A stretch of 32,535 nt of DNA, taken from IMG/VR virus record IMGVR_UViG_2541047835_000006; one strand, given 5' to 3'. Both the position numbers and the translations under genes were made by a program. Position 1 is the stretch's first letter. Each line of letters opens with the position of its first letter. This DNA comes from a virus. Lineage: Duplodnaviria; Heunggongvirae; Uroviricota; Caudoviricetes. Positions 2,179 to 32,098 of the stretch are shown in pieces. The notes below the pieces were generated by a model that was not told where the DNA came from, did not search any database, and was given only the letters and a program-made list of their open reading frames with translations.

Positions 2179-2516
2179 AGCAACTCCTGAGTCCGGGGTT
2201 GTCCGTCAGAGCCTTTCCAGCTCACCCGGAGCGTAAGATGTTCGCCGTCGACGGCGGGTTTAACCGACATAAGCTGGCAGCGAGGCTCCCAGCGGCGAAT
2301 GGCATCGACGGATTCGCGCACCACATGCGGAATAGCCCGGTCAATAGGCCAGTCGATATAAAGGTGCAGATTGCTGCCGAACTCCGGGCGATGCGGGTCG
2401 CTGCCGCGAGGAGTACGCAGGATGATTTGAATGGCCTGCCAGATATCATCCAGCCCCCGGACGATTTCGCCAGGGGCCTGCAGAGCCGGTTGCCAGAATA
2501 CTGAGGTTGTTTTCAT
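2169..2516 (-). CDS. Baseplate protein W (GPW/gp25 family)
   Basis: 115 aa, typical gpW size, located between V-like spike and J-like genes. Confidence 0.7.
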   Translation of the reverse strand: MKTTSVFWQPALQAPGEIVRGLDDIWQAIQIILRTPRGSDPHRPEFGSNLHLYIDWPIDRAIPHVVRESVDAIRRWEPRCQLMSVKPAVDGEHLTLRVSWKGSDGQPRTQELLWR

Positions 2517-14229: not shown

Positions 14230-14443
14230 TTTGCTGTCCCGCGTTACGTTGTCGGGGACAGTCTGTGGAAAAAGTGTCAGCAGCGCTTTTAATCTGCTTT
14301 AGAAAAAATCGGGGGTATCAGTACGGGGAATGTCACGCTGCGGGCGAATAGTGGTGCAAAGCGGGGGCTGTAAAGCCTTTATAAAGGTAATACAGCCCCT
14401 CAGCGGCTGGCAATGATAAATCACCCGCCTGCAGAGACAAAAC

Positions 14444-20287: not shown

Positions 20288-21014
20288 AGCTGCCGCCTCC
20301 CCAGGTGAGATAACGCGGGGCCAGTTCGTGCAGGATGCGCTGCGGATAATGACGGTTCTCCCGCCAGTTGGCAGTGCTGCGTCCGGCATTCACCGTGGCG
20401 ACATGACCAAACCAGCGGGTGCTGTCCAGCCCCTGCTGCGAGGCCAGCCGTTTGTCCCGCTGTACCCAGCCCAGACCACCGTTATAGCCTGACAGCGTCA
20501 TGGCCATACGCTCGCAGTCATTGACGGCGCTGACGCGTTGCCACAGCCAGCGGTCATAGCTGACCAGCGCCCGGATGGCCCAAGACGGATTAAACGGTTC
20601 ACGGCTGTTAAGCCCCGGCATCAGCTGACTTATCCAGTCAGCGGTGGTGGGCATAAACTGCGCCAGTCCCTGAGCGCCAACCGGCGAGACCGCATCAGGT
20701 CGCCAGCCGCTTTCCTGATGCAGCTGCGCGGCGAAGTCGGCCACCGGCGCAGACATTCCCCATTCAAGCCGGGCATTACGGATCACATCGTCGCGATACT
20801 GCAGCGCGGTCTGCGGTGGCTGGGCAGCGCGGGCCTGACTGAAGAAGCCGCCACACCAGAGCAGCCAGGCTACCGTTACTGAACCAAAGAGCTGCCACCA
20901 GAAACTGTGCTTACCCGTTCGGGCCTGCCCGTGGCGGGCCAGTTCGATGCCCAGCCCCAGCAGTACCAGCACGGCCCAGACAACCTGAGGCCAGTACATA
21001 TAGAGGGTCATCAT
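20277..21014 (-). CDS. Endolysin, lytic transglycosylase (SLT domain) with N-terminal TM/signal-anchor
   Basis: 245 aa; SLT signature ...LHQESGWRPDAVSPVGAQGLAQFMPTTA...; hydrophobic N-terminus (VVWAVLVLLGLGI). Confidence 0.8.
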   Translation of the reverse strand: MMTLYMYWPQVVWAVLVLLGLGIELARHGQARTGKHSFWWQLFGSVTVAWLLWCGGFFSQARAAQPPQTALQYRDDVIRNARLEWGMSAPVADFAAQLHQESGWRPDAVSPVGAQGLAQFMPTTADWISQLMPGLNSREPFNPSWAIRALVSYDRWLWQRVSAVNDCERMAMTLSGYNGGLGWVQRDKRLASQQGLDSTRWFGHVATVNAGRSTANWRENRHYPQRILHELAPRYLTWGGGSCVD

Positions 21015-21364
21015 TAAAGCCCCATCGCTACGGCCAGACAGACTGCAGCAACAATCAGCGCACGGCGGATTAGCGCAGCAGAAAAGACCAGGTGAAGGCC
21101 AGTCTGGACAGGGAAGCGACCATCAGCCATCAGCCTGTCATCATGCTTCAGGTACTGACCGGGACGGGCTTTGGGGAAAAGCGAACGGTCAAGCCAGTAG
21201 CCCAATACTGCCGCCAGCGTGATGAGTGATAGCTTGTAGACAACCACCGGCAGCTGCTGGGGCGATACCAGACCGATGGTGCCGAGCAGCAGCACAGCGG
21301 TCAGCAGCCAGCCGCTGAGACGTGGCTTTTTAACAGGGGGAATGAATTTTTTCAGGTTTTTCAT
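21014..21364 (-). CDS. Putative holin / membrane protein, first gene of late operon
   Basis: ATG 21364 with AAGGAGA SD; 2-3 predicted TM segments; immediately upstream of endolysin. Confidence 0.5.
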   Translation of the reverse strand: MKNLKKFIPPVKKPRLSGWLLTAVLLLGTIGLVSPQQLPVVVYKLSLITLAAVLGYWLDRSLFPKARPGQYLKHDDRLMADGRFPVQTGLHLVFSAALIRRALIVAAVCLAVAMGL

Positions 21365-21611
21365 GAGCGTCTCCTTGTGTAGTGGAGACAGCATCACAAA
21401 TGGTCGGGGAAAGGGATTTTAAACAGCGTTAATAGTGAGGATGCAGACGTGAACCGCATGATGGCTTTGAAAGAACGACCAGCCCGGTGCGGTAACACCA
21501 GGCTGGTCATCAACCCACAGGTATGCACTGTGAGCCGACCAGGGTTCAGTCAGTCTCGCGAGACCAGACTAGCCTGCCATATTTTCATTGATTGCAAAAG
21601 GCTTACGGATA
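21365..21611. promoter_or_regulatory. Divergent control region for late operon (minus) and methyltransferase (plus) with two palindromes
   Basis: Imperfect 32-bp dyad GACCAGCC-N16-GGCTGGTC at 21477..21508 and perfect 12-bp palindrome GTCTCGCGAGAC at 21553..21564; minus-strand -10-like TAAAAT at 21416..21421 lacking a good -35. Confidence 0.4.
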
Positions 21612-22382
21612 ATGAAAGAACAATCTTTACCCATCGTCCCATGGATTGGCGGTAAACGTCGTCTGGCGAAGCATATTTTACCATTGTTTCCGGCCCATAC
21701 CTGCTATGTGGAGCCATTCTGCGGGGCAGCTGCGCTCTATTTCCTAAAGACGCCCAGCAAGACCGAAGTCATTAACGATATCAACGGGGAACTGGTGAAC
21801 CTCTATCGGGTGGTCAAGCATCATCTGGAAGAATTTATTCGCCAGTTCAAATGGGCGCTGGTCAGCCGTCAGATTTACAAATGGTTGCAGGATACGCCGG
21901 AAGAAACGCTCACCGACATTCAGCGGGCGGCCCGGTTCTACTACCTGCAGAAACAGGCATTTGGCGGCAAGGTCGCCGATCACACATTCGGTACCTCTAC
22001 AACCAGTGCGCCGCGCTTCAATTTGCTGCGTATTGAGGAAGAACTGTCGATGGCACACCTGCGCCTGTCGAGAACGCTGATAGAGCATCTGGACTGGCAC
22101 CAGTGCATAGAGCGATATGATCGCCCGCATACGCTGTTCTACTGTGACCCACCGTACTGGGGAACGGAAGGCTATGGTGTGGAGTTCGGGCTGGAAAACT
22201 ATGATCACATGGCAGATTTAGCGCGAAGGATCAAAGGGAAGATGATTATATCAGTGAACGATATCCCGGAAATGCGGCAGGTATTCAACGGTCTGAACAT
22301 GCAGTCGGTTGATATCAGCTACAACCTTAAGGTAACAGGCAAACCCAGCCCGAAGAAAGAGCTGGTAATTTGTAATTTTTGA
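21612..22382 (+). CDS. DNA N6-adenine methyltransferase, Dam family (orphan; no restriction partner seen)
   Basis: Motifs PWIGGK (cf. Dam KWAGGK), EPFCGAAALYF, and catalytic YCDPPYWGT (DPPY); ATG 21612 preferred over upstream TTG 21588. Confidence 0.85.
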   Translation: MKEQSLPIVPWIGGKRRLAKHILPLFPAHTCYVEPFCGAAALYFLKTPSKTEVINDINGELVNLYRVVKHHLEEFIRQFKWALVSRQIYKWLQDTPEETLTDIQRAARFYYLQKQAFGGKVADHTFGTSTTSAPRFNLLRIEEELSMAHLRLSRTLIEHLDWHQCIERYDRPHTLFYCDPPYWGTEGYGVEFGLENYDHMADLARRIKGKMIISVNDIPEMRQVFNGLNMQSVDISYNLKVTGKPSPKKELVICNF

Positions 22383-22395
22383 AAGAGGTAGTTAA

Positions 22396-22423
22396 AGGTG
22401 GTGGTGCATCTGCAGCACCACCT
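22396..22423. terminator. Hairpin between convergent methyltransferase and lipoprotein genes (candidate bidirectional terminator)
   Basis: AGGTGGTG...CACCACCT 8-bp stem plus inner 3-bp stem, loop ATCT; flanking U-tracts imperfect. Confidence 0.4.
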
Positions 22424-22429
22424 AAACAT

Positions 22430-22957
22430 TTAATCCTGCCTTGGACAAGTCCAATAATCATTATCTGGCTCTGGTGAATAAGCTTTCAAACAACCTGCTC
22501 GCGGGGGCTTACCATCATCTGTCATAGGAACTTTTTCCTTATCAAGTTTCACGGTCAGGTCTCCACCAGGAACATCCGTTTTATCGAAAAAAACAGCCTG
22601 ACATGCTGATTTAGATATTTTCACTTCGTGGGCATTATTTGATATGAACAAATAACAATTATGACCAGAGGCTATGTAGTCACTTGGAATATTATTTTCG
22701 TCTTTAATATGAAACTGCACCGTTGTCACCGGGCGTTCTCTATCCTCGGATACTTCGACTTTTTCAAAACTGTCCGCGTACTTATCCAGGCCGGGGAGTT
22801 GTTGGCGAATAAACGGTAATTCGCGATTTACAACCGGATTATCTGTTTCAACGCTAAAAACCGCGTGCTCCTTAGCTGTGGTGGACGTATCAGCAGGATC
22901 GGTATTATCTCCACACCCAGATAAAACAAATATCAACGGTAAAAATAATTTGCGCAT
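22430..22957 (-). CDS. Lipoprotein of unknown function, low-GC, directly downstream of repressor
   Basis: MRKLFLPLIFVLSGC signal peptide with lipobox; AAGGA SD; visibly AT-richer than the prophage backbone; 41-bp gap after repressor stop. Confidence 0.6.
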   Translation of the reverse strand: MRKLFLPLIFVLSGCGDNTDPADTSTTAKEHAVFSVETDNPVVNRELPFIRQQLPGLDKYADSFEKVEVSEDRERPVTTVQFHIKDENNIPSDYIASGHNCYLFISNNAHEVKISKSACQAVFFDKTDVPGGDLTVKLDKEKVPMTDDGKPPRAGCLKAYSPEPDNDYWTCPRQD

Positions 22958-22998
22958 AGTCATGTCCTTATACCTCTAATGTTCTTAATAGGAACAGA

Positions 22999-23409
22999 TT
23001 AACCCGTATTTTTTAATCTTTCGAACGCTGCGGACAGCTCCTTAAGCTGTTTTTCCATATCAATCATTCGCTGTTTTTCCTCAGCGCCTCGCAGCAACTC
23101 TTTTCGCACCTCTGGCTCCAGTTGATTGAGCAGCTCCAATAACTTCAGATCAGACTGGTTGAAATGCTGCTCCTGATTAGCTGGCTGTGCTTTCTCTACC
23201 CCAACAGCTTCCCCTTTACCAGTAAGTAGCCAATCTATTGATATGTTCAAATGGGTGCTTAGCGCAACAAGAGCCTCTGCATTAGGTTCTCTCTCTCCAC
23301 GCAGATAGTTTTGAAGTGAGCGATATGGAATTTTTGACAAGTCTGACAATGCCTTAATTGTCAGACCCTTAGCATCCATCGCTTCGCGCAATCTCTCTTT
23401 TATACTCAT
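22999..23409 (-). CDS. Prophage repressor, XRE-family HTH with C-terminal coiled coil
   Basis: Start at ATG 23409 (MSIKERLREAMDAKGLTIKALSDLSKIPYRSLQNYLRGEREP...); divergent from early operon. Confidence 0.75.
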   Translation of the reverse strand: MSIKERLREAMDAKGLTIKALSDLSKIPYRSLQNYLRGEREPNAEALVALSTHLNISIDWLLTGKGEAVGVEKAQPANQEQHFNQSDLKLLELLNQLEPEVRKELLRGAEEKQRMIDMEKQLKELSAAFERLKNTG

Positions 23410-23425
23410 TTGAACATATCTCAAT

Positions 23426-23453
23426 TTGACATACCCGTTTGGGTGCGTACAAT
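23426..23453 (+). promoter_or_regulatory. Early promoter (sigma70-like) for ner-like/transposase operon
   Basis: TTGACA (23426..23431), 16-bp spacer, TACAAT (23448..23453); followed by repeated ACCCAA(T/C)AG motifs at ~23454 and ~23474 that may be operator sites. Confidence 0.55.
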
Positions 23454-24033: not shown

Positions 24034-24942
24034 ATGGGACGCACAAAATCACAACCAGTTGAACTAGTGGAAGATGCACCGCTGACCGATGGTCTCAGTG
24101 TCAGTCTTAATGCTATGTCCGAACATCGCCTCGAAATCATGCAGCAGTTTGGTGATGGCTTGCCGTATGAACGTGATCGTATTGTCCATGAAACACGTTT
24201 TTATATGGCTCAGAGTGCTGAAGCCATGCTGGAGGCGGGTAAACGACTGGTAATTCTCAAAGAAAATGAACCACATGGTGACTTCATCGACATCGTTGAG
24301 TCTCAGTTGTCCCTATCCAAACGTACGGCGCAGGTGATGATGCAAGCATCCCTCAAATATTTGTCTCCCAAGCTTGAACCAAAAGCGCAAGCGCTTGCGC
24401 TTTTGGGTAAAACAAAGCTGTTTGAGTTGATGACGGAAGATGACGAAGACCTCGTCGAATTAGCCGATGGCGGCACGATTGCGGGTATGAGCCTCGATGA
24501 TATTGATCGCATGACAAGCCGCGAACTGAAAGCGGCCCTACGCGAAGCGCGTGAAACCAACGCAGCACAACAGCGCGTGCTTGCCGACAAAAACGAAAAA
24601 ATCGACTCGCTCTCCACAAAACTGGAGAAGAAATCCCGTATCCAGCCGCCCAAGCCTGACGAAGAGGTGAAGAAGCTGCGTGCGGAAGTTACAGCGTTAG
24701 CGGTTGAGGCGGAATCTGCCATCGCCGTTCGACTGTCCAGCGCCTTTGAGACCCTGTGCGCATACTGTGCTGAAAATATGATTGATACCCCCAGAGACTT
24801 TATGGCCGGTCTGGTCTGCCAGTTGGAAAGCACCGCGCGTAGCCTGCGCTCCACATTTGACCTGCCGGACGAGCCGACAGGCAACGCCGCCCCTTCATGG
24901 CTGACTGACCCGACGCCAGAGATTAACGGGCAGGAGGCATAA
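24034..24942 (+). CDS. Hypothetical protein with central coiled coil, upstream of transposase
   Basis: 302 aa; AAGGAG SD; no recognised catalytic motif. Confidence 0.5.
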   Translation: MGRTKSQPVELVEDAPLTDGLSVSLNAMSEHRLEIMQQFGDGLPYERDRIVHETRFYMAQSAEAMLEAGKRLVILKENEPHGDFIDIVESQLSLSKRTAQVMMQASLKYLSPKLEPKAQALALLGKTKLFELMTEDDEDLVELADGGTIAGMSLDDIDRMTSRELKAALREARETNAAQQRVLADKNEKIDSLSTKLEKKSRIQPPKPDEEVKKLRAEVTALAVEAESAIAVRLSSAFETLCAYCAENMIDTPRDFMAGLVCQLESTARSLRSTFDLPDEPTGNAAPSWLTDPTPEINGQEA

Positions 24943-24945
24943 CCC

Positions 24946-26715
24946 ATGAGTGCCGCCCTGACTGAACGACTGGTTTATGTTGCCCGCGCGGCACGTGACG
25001 CGGGGCATGGTAAGCGTGGTGCGATATATGATGCCGCCTGCGCCGAACTGGGCATTTCCCGCGCCACCCTGCTGCGCAAGCTGAAGGAGGTATCAGTGAC
25101 TGACAAACGCAAAAAACGCGCCGATGCCGGGCGCAGCGCCCTGACCCGCGACGAAGCCGCGCTGATATCTGCCACACTACGTGAGGCCACCCGCAAGAAC
25201 GGTAAGCGTCTCTATTCCATCGCGGATGCAGTGGAAACCCTGCGGGCTAACGGCTTTATCTCCGCAGGCAGAACAGATGAAACCACCGGTGAGTTTTTCC
25301 CGTTGTCCGAAGATGCCATCAGCCGAGCCCTGCGTAACTATGGCCTGCACCCGGAACAACTGGATGCCCCTGCACCACATACTGAAGTGGCCAGTCTGCA
25401 TCCCAATCATGTCTGGCAGATTGATGCCTCGCTCTGCACGCTTTACTACCTGAGCAATGGACATAAAGGGCTGCAGGTGATGGACAGCGCGAAGTTCTAC
25501 AAGAACAAGCCCGCTAACCTTGCCCGTATCGCCAGTGACCGCGTGTGGAGTTACGAGATTACCGACCATGCCAGCGGCTGGATTTACGTTGAGTATGTGA
25601 CGGGAGCGGAATCCGGTGAGAACCTGTGTTCTGTGCTTATCAACGCCATGCAGGAGCGTGGCGGCGCAGACGTGCTGCACGGTGTGCCGAAAATACTCTA
25701 TCTCGACCCCGGCTCGGCAAACACCGCGGGTATGACGAAAAACATGTGTCGCTCACTGGGCATCGACCTGATAGCGCACAAGCCGCATAACGCCCGCGCC
25801 ACCGGACAGGTGGAAAAGGCGCGAGACATTATCGAACGCAAGCTGGAGCCGGGTCTGAAGTTCCGGCCGGTTCACAGTCTGGAAGAACTCAACGCGCTGG
25901 CCGCGAAATGGCGCAGCCACTTTAACGCAACAGCTGTTCACAGCCGCCACGGTAAAACCCGCACGGATATCTGGCTGAAGATTACTGCTGAGCAGTTGAA
26001 AAAAGCGCCTTCCGTTGAGGTTTGCCGTGAACTGGCTGTGGCAGCACCAGAACTCCGCAAAGTCACGCCAAAACTTCGTGTCTCGTTCCGGGGCACTGAA
26101 TTTGACGTATCAACGGTACCGGGCGTACTGGTCGGTGAAAAACTGATGATTACCCGTAACCCGTGGCGCAGCGATGTGGCACAGGTGGTTCTGACCGGTG
26201 AGGACGGCCACGAGACGTTCTTCCTGGTCGAAGAGGTCAGAAAGAACGAGTTTGGCTTTGCTGAAGGCGCGGCAGTATTTGGCGAAAGTTACAAAGCCCT
26301 GCCGGAAACCCCGGCGCAGATGGCGGCAAAAGAAACCGAAGCGCTGGTCACCGGTACAGACAACGCCGCAGATGCAGCTGCCGCACGCAAGGCGAAGGCG
26401 CTGCCGTTCGGCGGGCGGCTTGACCCGTATAAACATATCGACGACACCACACTTCCGGCCTATATGCCGAAGCGTGGTCAGGCCTCTGACGTACGCGGGC
26501 CGCGCACTGAACAACGTCCCATGACTCATGTGGAGGCCGCGAAAGCCCTGCGCGATAAGTTCAGCGCCGACGGCCTTACCTGGACGCCGGAACATTACCG
26601 CCAGTTAACGGCACAGTACCCGGACGGCGTACCGGAAGCCGCACTGGATGAAGTCATGGCCACGCTGACCACACCGGCCAGCAGCAGTGTTATCAGCATT
26701 GTTAACGGCAACTGA
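24946..26715 (+). CDS. DDE transposase (Mu A-like role; rve/TnsB-like catalytic core)
   Basis: 589 aa; N-terminal HTH; candidate D160 (HVWQID), D254 (LYLDPG), E290 (GQVEKA); AGGAGG SD; followed by AAA+ ATPase gene. Confidence 0.85.
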   Translation: MSAALTERLVYVARAARDAGHGKRGAIYDAACAELGISRATLLRKLKEVSVTDKRKKRADAGRSALTRDEAALISATLREATRKNGKRLYSIADAVETLRANGFISAGRTDETTGEFFPLSEDAISRALRNYGLHPEQLDAPAPHTEVASLHPNHVWQIDASLCTLYYLSNGHKGLQVMDSAKFYKNKPANLARIASDRVWSYEITDHASGWIYVEYVTGAESGENLCSVLINAMQERGGADVLHGVPKILYLDPGSANTAGMTKNMCRSLGIDLIAHKPHNARATGQVEKARDIIERKLEPGLKFRPVHSLEELNALAAKWRSHFNATAVHSRHGKTRTDIWLKITAEQLKKAPSVEVCRELAVAAPELRKVTPKLRVSFRGTEFDVSTVPGVLVGEKLMITRNPWRSDVAQVVLTGEDGHETFFLVEEVRKNEFGFAEGAAVFGESYKALPETPAQMAAKETEALVTGTDNAADAAAARKAKALPFGGRLDPYKHIDDTTLPAYMPKRGQASDVRGPRTEQRPMTHVEAAKALRDKFSADGLTWTPEHYRQLTAQYPDGVPEAALDEVMATLTTPASSSVISIVNGN

Positions 26716-26725
26716 GGAGGGAAAC

Positions 26726-27892
26726 ATGCTGGTACTGAAGCAGCAACTGAAAGAGGCCCGTATTCCACAGGCGGTGGTGGCGAGAGCTGTCGATGTTTCT
26801 GAGGCCACGCTGGCCCAGATTGTGAATCATAACGCGTGGCCCCGCACCAGTCCCGGAGAAGTACGCCGGCGTCTTGCGTCCTGGCTGGAAAGTCAGGGGA
26901 TTGATACAACGAAGAGTTTTGATGCTGTACAGGGCGCGGCCACGCCCCGTACAGCGGGTACCACAGATAAAACGAGCCTCAGTGAGGAAGAGAATATGTT
27001 ACTCAAAAAACAGGTGTTATTTCCAGCAACCAAAAAAGCGTTTGGTCTTTTCCGTGACCCGTTCGCCGACGAAGCCATGCAGGGTTCTGATGATGTGTTC
27101 ACCACCCCGGACATCCGCTATGTGCGTGAGGCGCTGTACCAGACAGCCCGTCATGGTGGATTTATGGCCGTCATCGGTGAGTCCGGTGCGGGTAAATCCA
27201 CGCTGCGCCGCGACCTGACTGAACGTATCAACCGCGAGAATGCGCCGGTAATTGTTATCGAGCCATATGTCATCGCCATGGAAGACAACGATGTGAAAGG
27301 GAAAACCCTGAAGGCAGCAGCGATTGCCGAAGCCATTATCAGTACCATCGCACCACTGGAAAGCATCAGACGCAGTCAGGATGCCCGCTTTCGCCAGCTG
27401 CATCGCGTCCTGAAAGACAGCAGCCAGGCGGGGTTCAGCCACGTTCTGGTGATTGAGGAGGCCCACAGCCTGCCCATTCCGACACTGAAACACCTCAAAC
27501 GCTTTTTTGAGCTGGAGTCCGGTTTCAAAAAACTGCTGTCCATCGTGCTGATTGGCCAGCCGGAACTGGCGACAAAACTGTCTGAACGCAATATGGAAGT
27601 CCGTGAAGTCGTTCAGCGCTGTGAGGTGGTCGAACTTCTGCCTCTCGACAATAACCTTGAAGAGTTTCTGACGTTCAAACTGCAACGGGCCGGTAAACAA
27701 CTGACGGACATTATGGACGCCGGCGCAGTGGATGCCATACGTGCCCGCCTGAGCAATCCGGGAAGTCACCGTAAAAACAGGGTCAGCCTGCTGTATCCGC
27801 TGGCCGTCAGTAACCTGGTAATAGCCGCCATGAATCTGGCCGCTGAAATCGGGGTTCCACAGGTCAACGCTGACGTTGTCAAAGGGGTTTAA
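26726..27892 (+). CDS. Transposition ATPase (Mu B-like role; AAA+ with N-terminal HTH)
   Basis: Walker A GESGAGKST, Walker B-like VLVIEEAH; ATG 26726 with GGAGG SD, just after transposase stop. Confidence 0.8.
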   Translation: MLVLKQQLKEARIPQAVVARAVDVSEATLAQIVNHNAWPRTSPGEVRRRLASWLESQGIDTTKSFDAVQGAATPRTAGTTDKTSLSEEENMLLKKQVLFPATKKAFGLFRDPFADEAMQGSDDVFTTPDIRYVREALYQTARHGGFMAVIGESGAGKSTLRRDLTERINRENAPVIVIEPYVIAMEDNDVKGKTLKAAAIAEAIISTIAPLESIRRSQDARFRQLHRVLKDSSQAGFSHVLVIEEAHSLPIPTLKHLKRFFELESGFKKLLSIVLIGQPELATKLSERNMEVREVVQRCEVVELLPLDNNLEEFLTFKLQRAGKQLTDIMDAGAVDAIRARLSNPGSHRKNRVSLLYPLAVSNLVIAAMNLAAEIGVPQVNADVVKGV

Positions 27893-27894
27893 TA

Positions 27895-28164
27895 ATGAAA
27901 TCCATCACAGGTATCAACCAGCAAATCAGCAAAGTGCAGTCAGCCATTATGGCGCTTATGGCGACGAACACGGATGTACAAAGCATCACCATCAGGGGCA
28001 ATAAACCGGTCATCCGCGTTTCCCGGAGTGCGCATTGCATGCGCATGCTTGAACAGGGGAAAGCCAGTTATCTGTATACCGGTCATGACCACAGGGGACA
28101 TTTCCGTCAGGGCGTTTTCGAACTGCACGGCTGTCGCGTCGTGTGGCCGGAATCTTTGTGGTAA
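27895..28164 (+). CDS. Small hypothetical protein at the position of Mu kil
   Basis: 89 aa; starts 2 nt after B-like stop. Confidence 0.45.
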   Translation: MKSITGINQQISKVQSAIMALMATNTDVQSITIRGNKPVIRVSRSAHCMRMLEQGKASYLYTGHDHRGHFRQGVFELHGCRVVWPESLW

Positions 28165-28191
28165 TCAGCACAACCGGAGAAATCATAAAAT

Positions 28192-28722
28192 ATGGCAAAA
28201 AGTACAAAAGGGGCAAAACGTATCAAGTCCGCAGCGGCACTCTGGGTACCGGGGACACGCGAAGAGGTCATTGAGGGCATCAGACTGCTCGGTGACGCAC
28301 AACGTGAACTGGTCAGGGCTGAAACAGAAATGAATGACGCCATTGGCGATATCACCGCACGTTATGCCCCGCTCACCGAGAGCCTGAAAAAACGCATGTC
28401 AGAACTGCAGTCCGGTATCCAGACATGGTGTGAGGCACACCGTGATGAACTGACCGGCAACGGGAAGGTGAAGTTCGCTAACCTCACCACCGGCGAGGTG
28501 CAGTGGCGAAACCGTCCGCCATCAGTCAGTATCCGTGGAGCGGATAATGTTATTGAACTACTGAGACGTCTGGGGCTTGAGCGCTTTATTCGTGTAAAAG
28601 AGGAAATAAATAAAGATGCCATTCTGAATGAAAAAGAGGCCGTGAAAAATATTCCCGGCATTACCATAAAAAGTGATATTGAGGATTTTTCAATAATTCC
28701 TTTTGAGCAGGATGTGCAGTAA
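28192..28722 (+). CDS. gam: Host-nuclease inhibitor Gam (Mu Gam family)
   Basis: 176 aa; recalled similarity to Mu Gam including RIKSAAA..., ETEMNDAI, RPPSVSIRG and C-terminal IEDFSIIPFEQ. Confidence 0.8.
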   Translation: MAKSTKGAKRIKSAAALWVPGTREEVIEGIRLLGDAQRELVRAETEMNDAIGDITARYAPLTESLKKRMSELQSGIQTWCEAHRDELTGNGKVKFANLTTGEVQWRNRPPSVSIRGADNVIELLRRLGLERFIRVKEEINKDAILNEKEAVKNIPGITIKSDIEDFSIIPFEQDVQ

Positions 28723-28819
28723 ACACACCACGTTAATTATTTAATAAAAACATTTTCTTTTTTATTCCGGCGTCAGCGCCGTGGGCTTCTGCACGCCGGA
28801 AACAGAGGAGAATTAAATT

Positions 28820-29014
28820 ATGATATTTAAATGTATTCAGTGCGAGAGGGATATAACAGCCCTGCGTTTTCACAGCGCCATCGCCGTGATGTCCGGTAAA
28901 TACCACGTACCTGCAGTACGCGTCACCCTGGTCTGTCCGTACTGCAGTCAGCATTTTTCGGCAGATGTGCCCGTTATGGAATTCTCCCGCCCTGACAGGG
29001 AGGAAGCGCAATGA
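28820..29014 (+). CDS. Small zinc-ribbon-like protein (CxxC...CxxC)
   Basis: 64 aa; CIQCERD and CPYCSQ pairs; AGAGGAG SD; preceded by AT-rich spacer with hairpin. Confidence 0.45.
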   Translation: MIFKCIQCERDITALRFHSAIAVMSGKYHVPAVRVTLVCPYCSQHFSADVPVMEFSRPDREEAQ

Positions 29015-29283
29015 TTACCCCACAGGAAGCACATCAGCGCACCCGCGCCCTTGTTGAACGGTATCTCAACGAGTGTGAATGCCGTGACCTCACCGATATC
29101 ATGTGCGCCCTGACGGCGTTAATCAGCATGGCCACGCAGGCCATTGTAGCGACTAACGGAAAGGAGGCCGCCCTGCAGATACTAGTGAACACACTCACCC
29201 ACGCGGCAGAGCACGAGGTGCCGTACCGGATGGAAATCACTGCAGAAGGCGACCTGCACATCATTGTTGACCGGAAGCACTGA
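29011..29283 (+). CDS. Hypothetical protein
   Basis: 90 aa; GGGAGGAAG SD; ATGA overlap. Confidence 0.45.
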   Translation: MITPQEAHQRTRALVERYLNECECRDLTDIMCALTALISMATQAIVATNGKEAALQILVNTLTHAAEHEVPYRMEITAEGDLHIIVDRKH

Positions 29284-29292
29284 GGGCGCGGT

Positions 29293-29595
29293 ATGACACG
29301 GAACACCGTACACACCCGCGCCGCCCTCTACCGTCTGGCCCTGCAGCGTTTCGGTCCGGATGCACAGGCCCTGAAACTGACAGAAGAGGCCGCTGAACTG
29401 GCGGCCAGTGCTGCCCGCAACCTGAACGGACAGGGCAGCGAAAGTGACCTCGCGGCAGAGCTGGCAGACGTGGAAATCATGACAGAGCAGCTGCGCCTTC
29501 AGGGGATGGACCGGCTGATTGACTTCCACAAACAGAAAAAACTGGAACGCCTTGCCGCACGGCTGGGCGTCACATACACCGGAGAAATCATATGA
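29293..29595 (+). CDS. MazG-like nucleotide pyrophosphohydrolase (all-alpha NTP-PPase family)
   Basis: 100 aa; acidic motifs LTEEAAELAAS and ELADVEIMTEQ consistent with E-E-x-x-E ... E-x-x-D metal-binding pattern. Confidence 0.5.
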   Translation: MTRNTVHTRAALYRLALQRFGPDAQALKLTEEAAELAASAARNLNGQGSESDLAAELADVEIMTEQLRLQGMDRLIDFHKQKKLERLAARLGVTYTGEII

Positions 29596-29975
29596 ACCGC
29601 ACCGAACAGACGCCACAACTGACGCTGGAAGATGCTGCACAGCGTATTCAGGTACTGGAAGACGAAAACGAATACCTGCGCAAGAGATTTGAAGAGGTGG
29701 ACCTGTACTTCGGGCGCAATCTGGTCGTCATGAAAGCTGCAGTGATTGAGTGGCGGGCCACCGGTGATGCCAGGAACGGCATGGCGTGGATTTACAACAC
29801 CCTGTGTGGGCCGGGCGAACTGCCTCCGCAAGAGGAGAAAGAGGCACAGGAATACTTCAACAGGGAAACTGAAGTTATCGACAGAAAACTGGCTGCCCTG
29901 TACCACTGGTTCAGGAAATACCACAGGACACACGCCGCACCTGACCAGACCACCACAGGAGGTACCAGTGACTGA
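29592..29975 (+). CDS. Hypothetical protein with N-terminal coiled coil
   Basis: 127 aa; ATATGA overlap with upstream gene. Confidence 0.5.
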   Translation: MNRTEQTPQLTLEDAAQRIQVLEDENEYLRKRFEEVDLYFGRNLVVMKAAVIEWRATGDARNGMAWIYNTLCGPGELPPQEEKEAQEYFNRETEVIDRKLAALYHWFRKYHRTHAAPDQTTTGGTSD

Positions 29976-30183
29976 CACCATTATGGAAATTGTGGTATGG
30001 GCTTTCCTGCTTACTGGTATAGCCGTGTGCATCTGCGCCGGATTCGCCCTGGTTGCCCTGCTGACCCACGTGGTGACGCAGTGGTTATGGGAAAAGCTTA
30101 AAGCAGCATACAGCCTGAAAGAGCTGTCCGACGCTGTTCGGGCATGGGAACAGCAAAAAAATACCGGAGATACTGAACAATGA
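29968..30183 (+). CDS. Small membrane protein (one TM helix)
   Basis: GTG 29968 preceded by AGGAGG at ideal spacing; TM VVWAFLLTGIAVCICAGFALVALL. Confidence 0.4.
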   Translation: MTDTIMEIVVWAFLLTGIAVCICAGFALVALLTHVVTQWLWEKLKAAYSLKELSDAVRAWEQQKNTGDTEQ

Positions 30184-30863
30184 CAGACCAGGATAAGCAC
30201 ATTGAGAAACTGAAAAAGTTGCTGGCGCTGGCAGCATCCGGCAACCCGCATGAGGCTGCTCTGGCACTGCGCCGCGCCCGTAAACTGATGGATGTTCACG
30301 GCATCACACATTCCGACATCGCCATGAGTGATATTGATGAAACCATCAGTCACTACTGGCCGACAGGCAGCCTCCGTCCGCCGCGCTACATGCTGGGCCT
30401 GATGAACATCATCCGCGAGGCATTTGGTGTTAACTCCATCATTCACCCCGGCACATATCCGGGTGTGGGGTTCTACGGCAACCGGGAACGGGCCGCACTG
30501 GCCGCGTACACCTGGGAAGTGCTGGCCCGTCAGCTGAAAAAGGCGCGTCAGCAGTATATCAGTGCACAGAACAAAAGAATAAAAACCGCCACCCGCACCA
30601 GCCGTGGAGACCAGTTTGCTGAAGGCTGGGTGCTGGCCGTTATCAGTGAAATACAGTCCTTCGCCTTGACCGATGACGAACGTGAACTGATGCAGCAGTG
30701 GCTGGAACATAAATACCCGCAGACGCAAACCACCAGGGCGCGTAAACCGGGAAGAAGTCGCAATGGCGACGCCTCGCGCTATGCGGGGTTTCGAGAAGGG
30801 CAGAACGTCAGACTGCACCGACCGGTCAGTGGGCGGGAACAGCAGAAACTGGAGGCCAGATGA
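30180..30863 (+). CDS. Hypothetical protein (DUF2786-like N-terminus)
   Basis: 227 aa; N-terminal KLLALAASGNPHEAALALRRARKLM motif; ATGA overlap. Confidence 0.5.
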   Translation: MTDQDKHIEKLKKLLALAASGNPHEAALALRRARKLMDVHGITHSDIAMSDIDETISHYWPTGSLRPPRYMLGLMNIIREAFGVNSIIHPGTYPGVGFYGNRERAALAAYTWEVLARQLKKARQQYISAQNKRIKTATRTSRGDQFAEGWVLAVISEIQSFALTDDERELMQQWLEHKYPQTQTTRARKPGRSRNGDASRYAGFREGQNVRLHRPVSGREQQKLEAR

Positions 30864-31090
30864 TTACGTTATCAGGTAACAGCCGGAAATTAAAAGCCTG
30901 CCGAATATCTGCCAGATACCTTTTTGCCCGCGCCTTTTTTAAGAACGTCAGGCCGGGGATCACAATTGGTGTTATTGCCGGACGCGAACAGGTTGAAAAA
31001 TACATGTCAGGTGCATGGTGGAATAACGACCCTGTCATTGCTGCCCGTAATATTCATATCAGTTGGGGGGATATTCAGAATGACGGCTGA
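30860..31090 (+). CDS. Hypothetical protein
   Basis: 76 aa; GGAGG SD; ATGA overlap. Confidence 0.4.
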   Translation: MITLSGNSRKLKACRISARYLFARAFFKNVRPGITIGVIAGREQVEKYMSGAWWNNDPVIAARNIHISWGDIQNDG

Positions 31091-31295: not shown

Positions 31296-31737
31296 ACAAC
31301 GTCTTATCCAGCTCATTCATATTGCCCGTAATGAACTGGGTATGGATGAAGACACCTACCGCCAGATGTTACAGGGGCTGACCGGTAAAGCCTCAACCAA
31401 AGGAATGGATACCACACAACTAAACTGCGTGCTGGAATCCATGAAAAGGAAAGGCTTTCGCGTTAAGCCTGCCAGAAAAGCCAGCTCCGGTTTACCGCTG
31501 GATAACCATCCGCAGTCCAGGAAAATCCGTGCGCTATGGCTTGAAATGGCTGCTGCCGGCATTGTTCGTGACCGTTCAGAAAATGCATTAGCGCGGTGGA
31601 TCAAGCGGGAAACGGGCATCAGCGCCCTGCGCTGGCTCAATACTGAACAGGCAAGTAGTGTTATTGAGAAACTGAAGAAGTGGCAGCGCAGAGCTGCGGG
31701 AGTAAAACATGAGCGACCTGAATCAGTTTCGAAGTAA
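31285..31737 (+). CDS. GemA/gp16-like regulatory protein (Mu GemA position)
   Basis: ATG 31285 with AAGGAG SD; about 150 aa, immediately upstream of and overlapping mor. Confidence 0.6.
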   Translation: MMTKQRLIQLIHIARNELGMDEDTYRQMLQGLTGKASTKGMDTTQLNCVLESMKRKGFRVKPARKASSGLPLDNHPQSRKIRALWLEMAAAGIVRDRSENALARWIKRETGISALRWLNTEQASSVIEKLKKWQRRAAGVKHERPESVSK

Positions 31738-32098
31738 AGGGCCGGAACTCCTGGTGGAACTGGCACAGCATACCTCTGAGACCGTTCGCGAGATTATTGA
31801 TATTGAGCCCGCAATTGCCGACCAGATTGGTCAGGCCGTCGCGAACCGCATGATGCAGGTCTGGGGCGGGCAAAACGTTTATTTCCCGATGGGCATGGTA
31901 TGGAAGGTCAGTCAGCGCGACCGGGAAATCTTCAGGGGGTTTAACGGACGTAACCACCATGAACTGGCCCGCAAATTTGGTGTTTCGCTTCAGTGGGTCT
32001 ACAGCGTGGTTAAGCGGGTAAGAAAAGAAGAACTGGATCGGATGCAGGGCAAGCTATTTGCTGATGAACCCGATGTAGATACGGAGAAAAAAGAGTAA
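31709..32098 (+). CDS. mor: Mor/C-family transcriptional activator (middle operon regulator)
   Basis: 129 aa; C-terminal HTH region FRGFNGRNHHELARKFGVSLQWVYSVVKRVRK resembles Mu Mor. Confidence 0.8.
   Translation: MSDLNQFRSKGPELLVELAQHTSETVREIIDIEPAIADQIGQAVANRMMQVWGGQNVYFPMGMVWKVSQRDREIFRGFNGRNHHELARKFGVSLQWVYSVVKRVRKEELDRMQGKLFADEPDVDTEKKE

Follow-up and report, generated by a model that had tools for sequence, protein, structure and literature searches.

The window, by which we mean the whole 32,535-nucleotide stretch of DNA that was analysed, contains a Mu-like (BcepMu-type, Bcepmuvirus-like) transposable prophage of E. coli. In this element a methyltransferase (MTase) gene is flanked on one side by the holin gene, with which the late operon starts, and on the other by a pair of genes for a lipoprotein and a repressor. 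The genes and features discussed below are the following.

21014..21364, minus strand: holin gene, the first of the leftward late (lysis, head, tail) operon (PF13272, E=1.5e-41; phrog_1528 holin).
21438..21467, no strand: junction of the holin-side module with the MTase cassette and a slot for variable cargo, recognised from insertions in relatives.
21468..21508, minus strand: intrinsic-terminator-like element with a 13-bp GC-rich stem (21477-21508) and the tail GTTCTTTCA (21476-21468).
21468..21611, plus strand: conserved non-coding leader of 144 bp that travels with the MTase gene, delimited by homology breakpoints.
21516..21532, no strand: small hairpin CACAG-N7-CTGTG, from an alignment of 44 unique leader variants.
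21543..21565, no strand: most conserved leader block (BLAST), with the perfect 12-bp palindrome GTCTCGCGAGAC (21553-21564).
21612..22382, plus strand: solitary D12-class (alpha) DNA amino-methyltransferase gene (PF02086, TIGR00571, AlphaFold (AF2), Foldseek).
22396..22423, no strand: hairpin in the gap between the MTase and lipoprotein genes, with 13-nt arms that are 92% complementary.
22430..22963, minus strand: accessory lipoprotein gene, lipobox LSGC (phrog_10002, function unknown).
22999..23409, minus strand: immunity repressor gene of the HTH_3/CI type (PF01381 and PF07022; a 411-bp gene in RefSeq).
23426-23453, strand opposite to the repressor: early promoter TTGACA-16-TACAAT (promoter scan).
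31709..32098, plus strand: gene for a Mor/C-family late transcription activator (PF08765, E=1e-42).

The MTase reading frame extends from the ATG at 21612 to the TGA at 22380-22382 and encodes 256 amino acids; the same 771 bp are annotated for this gene in RefSeq and in phage records. The Dam-family motifs named in a preliminary description of this DNA, PWIGGK and DPPY, are borne out at residues 10-15 and 179-182, respectively. Motif I, EPFCGAAA (FxGxG-type), occupies residues 34-41, and a predicted DNA-reading hairpin (about residues 116-138) lies between it and DPPY, so the protein has the D12 order of motif I, target-recognition hairpin domain, and motif IV, (D/N)PP(Y/F). Motif I, the hairpin region, and DPPY are invariant or nearly so across 53 alleles and 48 subfamily representatives, with the catalytic motifs fully invariant among the alleles. 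The match to PF02086 is strong (E=1e-27, 97.9 bits, cut-off 22), while the TIGR00571 'Dam family' model is passed narrowly (117.2 bits, cut-off 114.85). Searched with Foldseek, the AF2 model (pLDDT 91.7, pTM 0.90) matched E. coli Dam (E=1.9e-17, TM 0.78-0.82), followed by DpnM and 7M6B, likewise at a TM of about 0.8, and T4 Dam. The gene thus encodes a Dam-family (D12) MTase with a Dam fold and intact catalytic motifs, and dN/dS values of 0.03-0.07, obtained against alleles with saturated synonymous sites, indicate strong purifying selection at the sequence level.

Annotation of prophage genes as 'Dam-like' can hide a 16S rRNA methyltransferase, as illustrated by the Stx-prophage enzyme M.EcoPA8orf6770P, an MT-A70 family member long annotated as a DNA adenine methylase (PMC10810198). 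That the MTase likewise acts on rRNA or other RNA and not on DNA is exceedingly improbable, given that M.EcoPA8orf6770P is not a D12 enzyme, that the MTase has the full Dam fold including the hairpin domain with which Dam binds DNA, and that its nearest structures are all DNA methyltransferases. M.EcoGV, considered as a characterised homologue, was also discarded as an unrelated MT-A70 protein. The modified base is most likely N6 of adenine in a short motif. M.CbeI, however, is annotated as D12-class with DPPY and makes m4C in GGCC (Chung et al. 2012), so that D12 class and DPPY together fix neither motif nor base, and the base modified by the MTase is something we infer. M.CbeI differs further from the MTase in having a cognate endonuclease, CbeI. 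The structure 7M6B ('Mcbe1'), which from its entry name is probably M.CbeI, matches the subfamily profile about as well as DpnM does (E=8e-37 and 7e-37, respectively).

The gene is an ordinary one, known from thousands of genomes of enterobacteria. Proteins identical to its product (WP_000664222.1) carry the name 'DNA adenine methylase' on at least 1000 contigs, and roughly 10% of complete E. coli genomes, ST131 included, contain a close allele. With the identical protein annotated across Enterobacterales and a close allele published as a silent prophage orphan MTase, the discovery value of the gene is small; its modest practical interest lies in an annotation gap, in that the literature surveyed reports no recognition site for an enzyme this common in E. 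coli.

The holin gene, annotated likewise in KP12 and in RefSeq, is divergent from the MTase gene. On the other side the MTase gene is convergent with the lipoprotein gene, as previously described, across a 47-bp gap that holds the hairpin at 22396..22423. This hairpin was missed by a consensus terminator scan, but its RNA fold is stable on the plus strand (-23.6 kcal/mol, z -4.5), and it is likely a bidirectional terminator with weak T-tracts. The lipoprotein, with its signal peptide and lipobox, has no match in Pfam, NCBIfam, or PADLOC. Its gene lies downstream of the repressor gene on the same strand, and the two would be co-transcribed. Homologues are found in only about 20 of 61 related loci, and the lipoprotein is not a partner of the MTase.

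The preliminary description, while finding no restriction endonuclease next to the gene, had raised the prospect that it supplies the modification in a system so far unrecognised. In a restriction or defence system of this kind, a neighbouring ORF such as 22430..22963 would be the effector. Prophage accessory regions do often carry defence genes, and in PADLOC the MTase is matched best by PDLC03253, a model for a 'Type II methyltransferase' (377 bits). Against this, the neighbour is an exported lipoprotein present in only about a third of related loci, in which domain searches revealed no nuclease domain. The wider searches were likewise negative: no nuclease domain was detected in the ORFs from holin to transposase, in the early operon up to Mor, or in a few late ORFs; no nuclease or defence effector appeared in the ORFs scanned with Pfam or PADLOC; and no nuclease Pfam family occurred in the scanned flanking cargo of the 61 related loci, where nine representative proteins matched only NA37 and DUF2441. 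Both flanking slots are hypervariable among these loci while the MTase is constant, and a restriction partner among the relatives' variable cargo genes, considered as a candidate, was rejected when none was found. Two more distant subfamily members are also solitary, in prophage or mobile-element contexts without an endonuclease; the contigs of three others were too short to be informative. The adjacent cognate endonuclease that characterises type II restriction-modification is absent, the neighbours being holin, lipoprotein, and repressor. The MTase is solitary and conserved in position, and we regard a role as one half of a restriction or defence system as very improbable. Apart from the MTase and the repressor helix-turn-helix, the only PADLOC match was a 'DpdH'-labelled early ORF (29592..29975) about 7 kb away.

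It had also been proposed that the MTase gene shares the control region of the late operon. The divergent orientation stands, but sharing does not fit with a spacer that is a mosaic, with the cargo inserted there in relatives, or with the gene having a leader of its own. Into the 247-bp holin-MTase spacer, relatives have up to about 3.7 kb of other cargo inserted, and across the 61 loci holin and leader are between about 460 and about 4160 bp apart. In KP12 the slot at 21438..21467 holds 967 bp with an extra gene; in JJ1887, EC958, and PhiKM it holds about 1.4 kb with three ORFs. The left edge of the leader (21468) is a homology breakpoint in every relative, and KP12, PhiKM, and JJ1887 share breakpoints at 21435/21437 and 21468. 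Downstream of this edge conservation is high: the part of the leader at 21509-21611 is 85% identical between alleles with dS of about 1.27, versus 35% for the upstream flank. A 23-mer taken from the leader occurs at 61 loci, and at 53 of these the start codon of the MTase follows at a distance of 69 nt (+1/-3). The leader is non-coding, since it contains a frame-breaking indel and its translation is not conserved. Leader and coding sequence together form an autonomous cassette carried in the accessory region of enterobacterial BcepMu-like prophages.

Two elements stand out within the leader. The stem of the hairpin at 21516..21532 is invariant among the 44 unique variants while its loop varies freely, and the block at 21543..21565 is 100% identical (BLAST) between alleles that are otherwise 81% identical, making it a candidate regulator-binding site or promoter element for the MTase gene. 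The palindrome GTCTCGCGAGAC was also considered as a repressor operator or other repeated site and was rejected, being present in a single copy in the window. There is no consensus sigma-70 promoter in the leader, and no Rfam family matches anywhere in the window, so the leader contains no known RNA family. The Mor/C-family gene is the last of the early/middle operon, and its product is a candidate activator of late promoters, conceivably including that of the MTase. Late, C/Mor-dependent expression of the MTase would be in keeping with this gene and with the missing sigma-70 consensus; however, no late-promoter motif was found in the leader that also occurs upstream of the holin and head genes, the motif CT(T/G)TCCCCGAC being common to the latter two regions only. 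Folding predicts that the leader pairs with the PWIGG codons and that the ribosome-binding site is occluded; as the alignment holds too small a number of independent changes to judge this, the model is speculation. A cis-antisense RNA initiated at the extended -10 element TGGTAAAAT (21683-21675) and ending at the minus-strand terminator was rejected because codons 21-25 show no constraint at their synonymous sites in 42 alleles; other antisense promoters were searched for by eye only.

The left edge of the cassette coincides with the terminator-like element at 21468..21508. Its tail, GTTCTTTCA, is invariant, and its RNA fold is more stable on the minus strand (-32.3 kcal/mol, z -5.6) than on the plus strand (-23.1 kcal/mol). 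Among 30 distinct variants, 98.5% of the cells pair on the minus strand (384 of 390, including 28 G-U) versus 357 of 390 on the plus strand; compensatory changes occur in 5 of the 13 pairs, and none of 500 shuffles did as well. Judged from these sequence patterns, the element would halt leftward transcripts ahead of the holin gene and the late operon. Most likely, it bars read-through of the repressor/lipoprotein transcript, which would run antisense to the MTase gene, into the lysis genes. Leader and insulating terminator together provide a small testable model of how an accessory gene and a lysis operon may be kept silent in the lysogen.

The closest named enzyme is M.EcoMIV (EC958_1101 / EC958 RS05075 / WP_000783854.1) of prophage Phi2 in ST131, which is 84% identical to the MTase at the amino acid level. 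The two have nearly identical predicted DNA-reading hairpins and the same conserved leader, and both occupy the slot between holin and immunity genes of a BcepMu-like prophage. The ST131 prophage differs in its three extra upstream ORFs, the lack of a downstream lipoprotein gene, and another repressor allele. In EC958, M.EcoMIV is transcribed significantly below dam and has no assignable motif (Forde et al. 2015, PMC4659465); the transcript result comes from one RT-PCR condition and an 84% homologue of the present allele. These data bear on an epigenetic action on host or prophage promoters, also put forward in the preliminary description, which would make the gene a lysogenic-conversion regulator. 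Orphan methyltransferases can regulate genes, and this one lies in the accessory ('moron') region beside the immunity genes. The low transcription of M.EcoMIV in the same slot and its lack of a detectable motif count against such a role, as does the leader without a sigma-70 consensus. Salmonella CFSAN001921, reported to contain a BcepMu-like prophage, has five motifs only, each attributed to a named enzyme that is not a prophage D12 MTase, an observation that bears on the question only if its prophage carries this gene. On balance, regulation from the prophage appears improbable.

The earlier statement that GATC sites are not depleted proved wrong. The prophage contains 58 sites versus 141 expected (O/E 0.41), and no other of the 16 palindromic 4-mers has so low a ratio. 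In the early operon the ratio falls to 0.13, one stretch of 6.45 kb is free of GATC, and neither the holin-to-MTase spacer nor the early-promoter region contains a site. By comparison, the ratio is 0.81-0.90 in the E. coli flanks and 1.02-1.04 in BcepMu and B3. The GATC specificity implied by the Dam label is not established either. E. coli Dam and DpnM-type GATC enzymes share the Pfam family, motif order, DPPY, and fold of the MTase (TM about 0.7-0.8) but only 16-25% identity, and with the Dam equivalog model NF008152 the MTase reaches 69.8 bits, where 441 would be needed to pass. Horton et al. in 2006 are said to have identified K9, L122, R124, and P134 as the residues of E. coli Dam that contact the GATC bases; in a HMMER alignment the corresponding residues of the MTase are P10, K120, A122, and S132. 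The DpnM/Dam hairpin signature NGLxRxN...FNVPxGRY is missing from the whole subfamily. A GATC specificity is possible, but by alignment Dam's GATC-reading residues do not appear to be conserved, and membership of the 'Dam family' should not be equated with GATC.

Phage Dam enzymes serve packaging in P1, and control of mom in Mu is Dam-dependent. The MTase could accordingly be a GATC-specific Dam isozyme with a developmental role, keeping rapidly replicating or transposing phage DNA fully GATC-methylated when host Dam is limiting. Its pass of the 'Dam family' model and the GATC enzymes E. coli Dam, DpnM, and T4 Dam as its closest solved structures speak for this, and the absence of an extra motif in lysogens of the close allele is what a GATC enzyme would produce in a Dam+ host. 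The failed equivalog model, the different residues at the positions aligned to the reported base contacts of Dam (P for K9, K for L122, A for R124, S for P134), the absent hairpin signature, the few GATC sites in the prophage, and the barely transcribed EC958 allele all speak against it, and we consider a Dam isozyme unlikely, though with a real chance of being correct.

The reading we favour, with some confidence but well short of certainty, is that of a solitary phage-borne D12 MTase, active in the lytic phase and self-protective, that marks phage DNA against restriction. Of the three roles suggested in the preliminary description, protection is the best supported. The enzyme would be essentially off in the lysogen and made during lytic development, a timing extrapolated from the RT-PCR on the 84% identical M.EcoMIV. 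It would then methylate replicating phage DNA before packaging, so that progeny may resist restriction in the next host. Such a role would parallel that of Mom for Mu and the placement of com-linked MTases in the phages B3, Bise, and TJ1. ORF48 of Pseudomonas phage B3, a transposable Mu-like phage, is 65% identical to the MTase and the homologues in Bise and TJ1 about 66-68%, in each case over the full length. [quoted passage not shown] Whereas these genes are found either within the late region or at the right-hand end, the MTase gene in the window lies between lysis and immunity genes, with its own structured leader and no Com-like ORF. Since the window has no Com-like gene, the mom analogy rests on the homologues in other phages. 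A Com-like partner had been sought in a six-frame scan for CxxC-N(8-26)-CxxC and was rejected when nothing appeared near the gene.

In Mu-like prophages, mom is found replaced by Dam-related MTases, which make DNA refractory to many restriction enzymes (Drozdz et al. 2012, PMC3299994). Mu Mom and the Hia5/Hin1523/Nme1821 enzymes provide the working analogy, namely late adenine modification of a transposable phage's own DNA. Mom itself is an unrelated enzyme with an acyltransferase fold, and the Hia5 enzymes form a separate subfamily, distantly related among the Dam-like proteins, whose recognition domain is highly divergent and which show next to no sequence specificity. Membership of the MTase in the Hia5 subfamily is argued against by its B3 homologue, ORF48, which is not among the 1000 sequences closest to Hia5 (Drozdz et al. 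2012, PMC3299994). The hosts are Dam+, which counts against a protective role, since a GATC-specific MTase would then add little protection. Also counted against it is the avoidance of GATC, which shows that the phage meets GATC-directed pressures by loss of sites, not by methylation.

A bolder version, which we hold only tentatively and think rather doubtful, is that the widespread subfamily (BcepMu/B3-type) reads a non-GATC short motif or a relaxed one and that the MTase is a Com-independent substitute for Mom, its expression confined to the lytic phase by the leader. The elements invoked for this confinement are the palindrome at 21553-21564, the two hairpins, and the possible occlusion of the ribosome-binding site. 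If true, an enzyme of roughly a tenth of E. coli genomes would represent a specificity class and a control module that are both new.

Relatives of the MTase are not confined to transposable phages. The gene product gp27 of Burkholderia phage phiE125, which reportedly produces m6A without a defined motif, gp26 of phi1026b, and the 'Dam' of Vibrio phage VP882 are about 65% identical to it at the amino acid level. All three are solitary and belong to temperate phages, which differ from the present element in being lambda-like siphoviruses and a linear-plasmid prophage.

The open reading frame at 21612..22382 (+) encodes a 256-aa product (WP_000664222.1), running from the ATG at 21612 to the TGA at 22380-22382. 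A TTG start at 21588 was rejected, as RefSeq and phage records annotate a 771-bp gene and a 1-nt indel upstream of a close allele disrupts its frame. The protein carries the following motifs.

aa 10-15: PWIGGK
aa 34-41: EPFCGAAA, the AdoMet motif
aa 179-182: DPPY

It matches Pfam PF02086 (D12-class N6-adenine methyltransferase, E=1e-27), only just clears the cut-off of NCBIfam TIGR00571 ('Dam family'; 117.2 vs. 114.85), and falls clearly below that of the E. coli Dam equivalog model (69.8 vs. 441). An AlphaFold model built with 48 representatives of its subfamily is confident (pLDDT 91.7), and the structures it resembles most are E. coli Dam (TM ~0.8), DpnM, PDB 7M6B, and T4 Dam. Catalytic motifs are unchanged across 53 alleles, and dN/dS is 0.03-0.07 in comparisons with alleles whose synonymous sites are saturated (dS up to 1.27). 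Motifs, family matches, fold, and purifying dN/dS therefore bear out the preliminary description of a functional Dam-family methyltransferase gene. The gene is already catalogued, and the observation is correct but ordinary. An identical protein occurs on at least 1000 contigs, where its name is 'MULTISPECIES: DNA adenine methylase [Enterobacterales]'. Among phages, the protein of Escherichia phage Phi06_2974 B is 100% identical and that of Klebsiella phage KP12 99%. Alleles whose nucleotide identity reaches 80% or more are present in 529 of 5426 complete E. coli genomes.

As a whole, the window represents a transposable prophage of the Bcepmuvirus-like type, in which the following features flank the methyltransferase gene.

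21014-21364, leftward: holin gene, at the head of the late genes, followed leftward by genes for SLT endolysin, spanin-like proteins, terminase, head, and tail
22430-22963, leftward: exported lipoprotein (lipobox LSGC; no domain matches)
22999-23409, leftward: CI-type repressor
23426-23453, rightward: strong promoter driving the early operon (including a Ner-like gene, a helix-turn-helix gene, DUF3102, DDE transposase, ExeA-type ATPase, Gam, GemA, and Mor)

In BcepMu, by contrast, the slot between repressor and holin is filled by other genes (gp18-20), without a methyltransferase. The gene was also correctly described as an orphan: its neighbors are the holin, lipoprotein, and repressor genes, and the flanking and early-operon ORFs that were scanned showed no nuclease domain. 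We used a 23-mer of its leader to gather 61 further loci, comprising 12 GTDB species representatives across the Enterobacterales and 49 IMG/VR contigs. Every one of these has the cassette (leader plus coding sequence) inside a BcepMu-like prophage, with the holin gene to one side and the early genes to the other. The DNA flanking it is hypervariable on both sides, the lipoprotein is carried by only about one third of the loci, and representative flanking cargo proteins contain no nuclease families. A hidden restriction partner is therefore unsupported, and the suggestion that this is the modification half of an unrecognized defense system becomes very improbable.

Two hypervariable cargo slots adjoin the cassette in these BcepMu-like prophages (21438..21467 and 22383..~23000 in the window). 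Among the proteins encoded there are one with DUF2441, a nucleoid-associated protein of the NA37 type, a 247-aa protein that is P-loop-like, unknown proteins of 297-394 aa, and several that are lipoproteins or membrane proteins. The cassette itself decays occasionally, since L018 (Pantoea stewartii) and loci L020, L023, L029, and L065 keep the leader while the methyltransferase gene is absent, truncated, or split off by a ~2-kb insertion. The insertion in L029 has ORFs that resemble a transposase and an HTH protein, as judged by eye only.

The most telling comparative clue to function is the 65% identity with ORF48 of phage B3. [quoted passage not shown] These pairs share the architecture and position of com-mom in Mu, with the methyltransferase in the place of mom. 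In other Mu-like prophages, the place of mom is taken by methyltransferases related to Dam, which shield DNA from many restriction enzymes (Drozdz et al. 2012, PMC3299994). No Com-like ORF is present in the window, where the conserved leader is found instead. The Com-like ORF of Bise (OR683401.1, 2784..2996) is unannotated and overlaps the start of the methyltransferase homologue, while that of TJ1 (2329..2484) bears no annotation beyond hypothetical protein, is seemingly 5'-truncated, and lies ~40 nt upstream of the gene.

The ST131 allele EC958 RS05075 (WP_000783854.1; 84% aa identity) occupies the same slot and corresponds to M.EcoMIV, a D12 orphan on prophage Phi2 that was transcribed significantly less than dam in mid-log LB cultures; no motif could be assigned to it, and it had no homologue above 65% identity with a known recognition site (Forde et al. 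2015, PMC4659465). Given the Com-linked homologues, the gene's own leader without Com, and an M.EcoMIV that is silent in lysogens, the methyltransferase is probably made in the lytic phase, with little or none in the lysogen, and this solitary enzyme would then protect the phage's own DNA against restriction. The anti-restriction role raised in the preliminary description thus remains probable, while an epigenetic regulator expressed in the lysogen, against which the low transcription of M.EcoMIV speaks, seems quite improbable. Methylation of RNA is the least probable reading, since its precedent, M.EcoPA8orf6770P, belongs to MT-A70 and not to D12.

The preliminary description also implied Dam-like specificity, which neither the low equivalog score nor the residues aligned with the GATC contacts of Dam support. 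Residues K9, L122, R124, and P134 of E. coli Dam, which we take to be its GATC contacts, lie opposite P, K, A, and S in the HMMER alignment. The Dam/DpnM hairpin signature NGLxRxN...FNVPxGRY is absent throughout the subfamily, which has its own conserved hairpin, FGG...FG...P..N. With these positions changed, it appears unlikely that the enzyme is a Dam isozyme acting on GATC in phage development. The subfamily profile matches DpnM and 7M6B ('Mcbe1') equally well, and from its entry name the latter appears to be M.CbeI, an enzyme annotated as D12 with a DPPY motif that produces m4C in GGCC (Chung et al. 2012). D12 membership therefore settles neither the motif nor, strictly, the modified base. 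Among proteins matching the methyltransferase domain, P0123, P0139, P0146, P0150, P0151, P0168, P0242, and P0268 are 800-2500 aa long with 2-4 separate matches each, and are presumably multi-methyltransferase fusions of mobile elements.

GATC had been described as not depleted, which is wrong. The window contains 58 sites vs. 141 expected (O/E 0.41), the lowest ratio among the 16 palindromic tetramers, and a 6.45-kb stretch of the early operon (24505-30958) has none. For the early operon the ratio drops to 0.13, the late region has 0.44, and the methyltransferase cassette stands at 0.95, compared with 0.81-0.90 in the E. coli flanks, 1.02 in BcepMu (Burkholderia), and 1.04 in B3 (Pseudomonas), whose hosts, to our knowledge, lack Dam. 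This is the classic avoidance seen in enterobacterial phages, and gives no indication of the methyltransferase's target.

Homology breakpoints at 21435/21437 and 21468 recur in KP12, PhiKM, and JJ1887, and the junction holds 1-3.7 kb of additional cargo in other phages. Contrary to what had been proposed, the methyltransferase therefore does not share the late-operon control region, and it has its own 144-bp leader (21468-21611) with the following elements.

21477-21508: GC-rich 13-bp hairpin; in minus-strand orientation the invariant tail GTTCTTTCA comes next (whole element 21468..21508)
21516-21532: CACAG-N7-CTGTG hairpin, in which the loop varies freely
21543-21565: conserved block with the perfect palindrome GTCTCGCGAGAC (21553-21564), which occurs once in the window

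Between synonymous-saturated alleles, the leader 3' of the large hairpin (21509-21611) is 85% identical vs. 35% for the adjoining upstream flank, and 53 of the 61 loci keep a spacing of 69 nt (+1/-3) from 23-mer to ATG. Both observations point to constraint on the leader. Across 30 distinct variants of the large hairpin, minus-strand pairing extends to 98.5% of cells (384/390). The plus strand reaches 357/390, as all but one of the 28 cells that are G-U on the minus strand turn into A-C or C-A mismatches there. Compensatory changes affect 5 of the 13 pairs, none of 500 shuffles was as good, and the fold energy is -32.3 kcal/mol on the minus strand vs. -23.1 on the plus strand. The hairpin thus behaves as an RNA structure maintained on the minus strand only, and is likely an intrinsic terminator for leftward transcripts that would insulate the holin/late lysis operon from repressor/lipoprotein read-through. 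No consensus sigma-70 promoter was found upstream of the methyltransferase, and no known RNA family matched the leader. A candidate late-promoter or leader element, CT(T/G)TCCCCGAC(C/A)A, lies directly upstream of the holin gene (~21400..21413, -) and the head-gene block (~14248..14261, -) and is not found in the methyltransferase leader.

Elsewhere in the prophage, a 127-aa early-operon ORF (29592..29975, +) matches the PADLOC 'DpdH' model over its full length (E=5e-90) and phrog_18739 (unknown function), with no Pfam or NCBIfam match; the defense-system label may be an artefact of model building, or the prophage and Dpd islands may truly share this small protein. The gadC gene of E. coli CFS3292 (at ~30075 of that record) is interrupted by the same prophage, which truncates this gene for an acid-resistance antiporter, as random transposition would predict.
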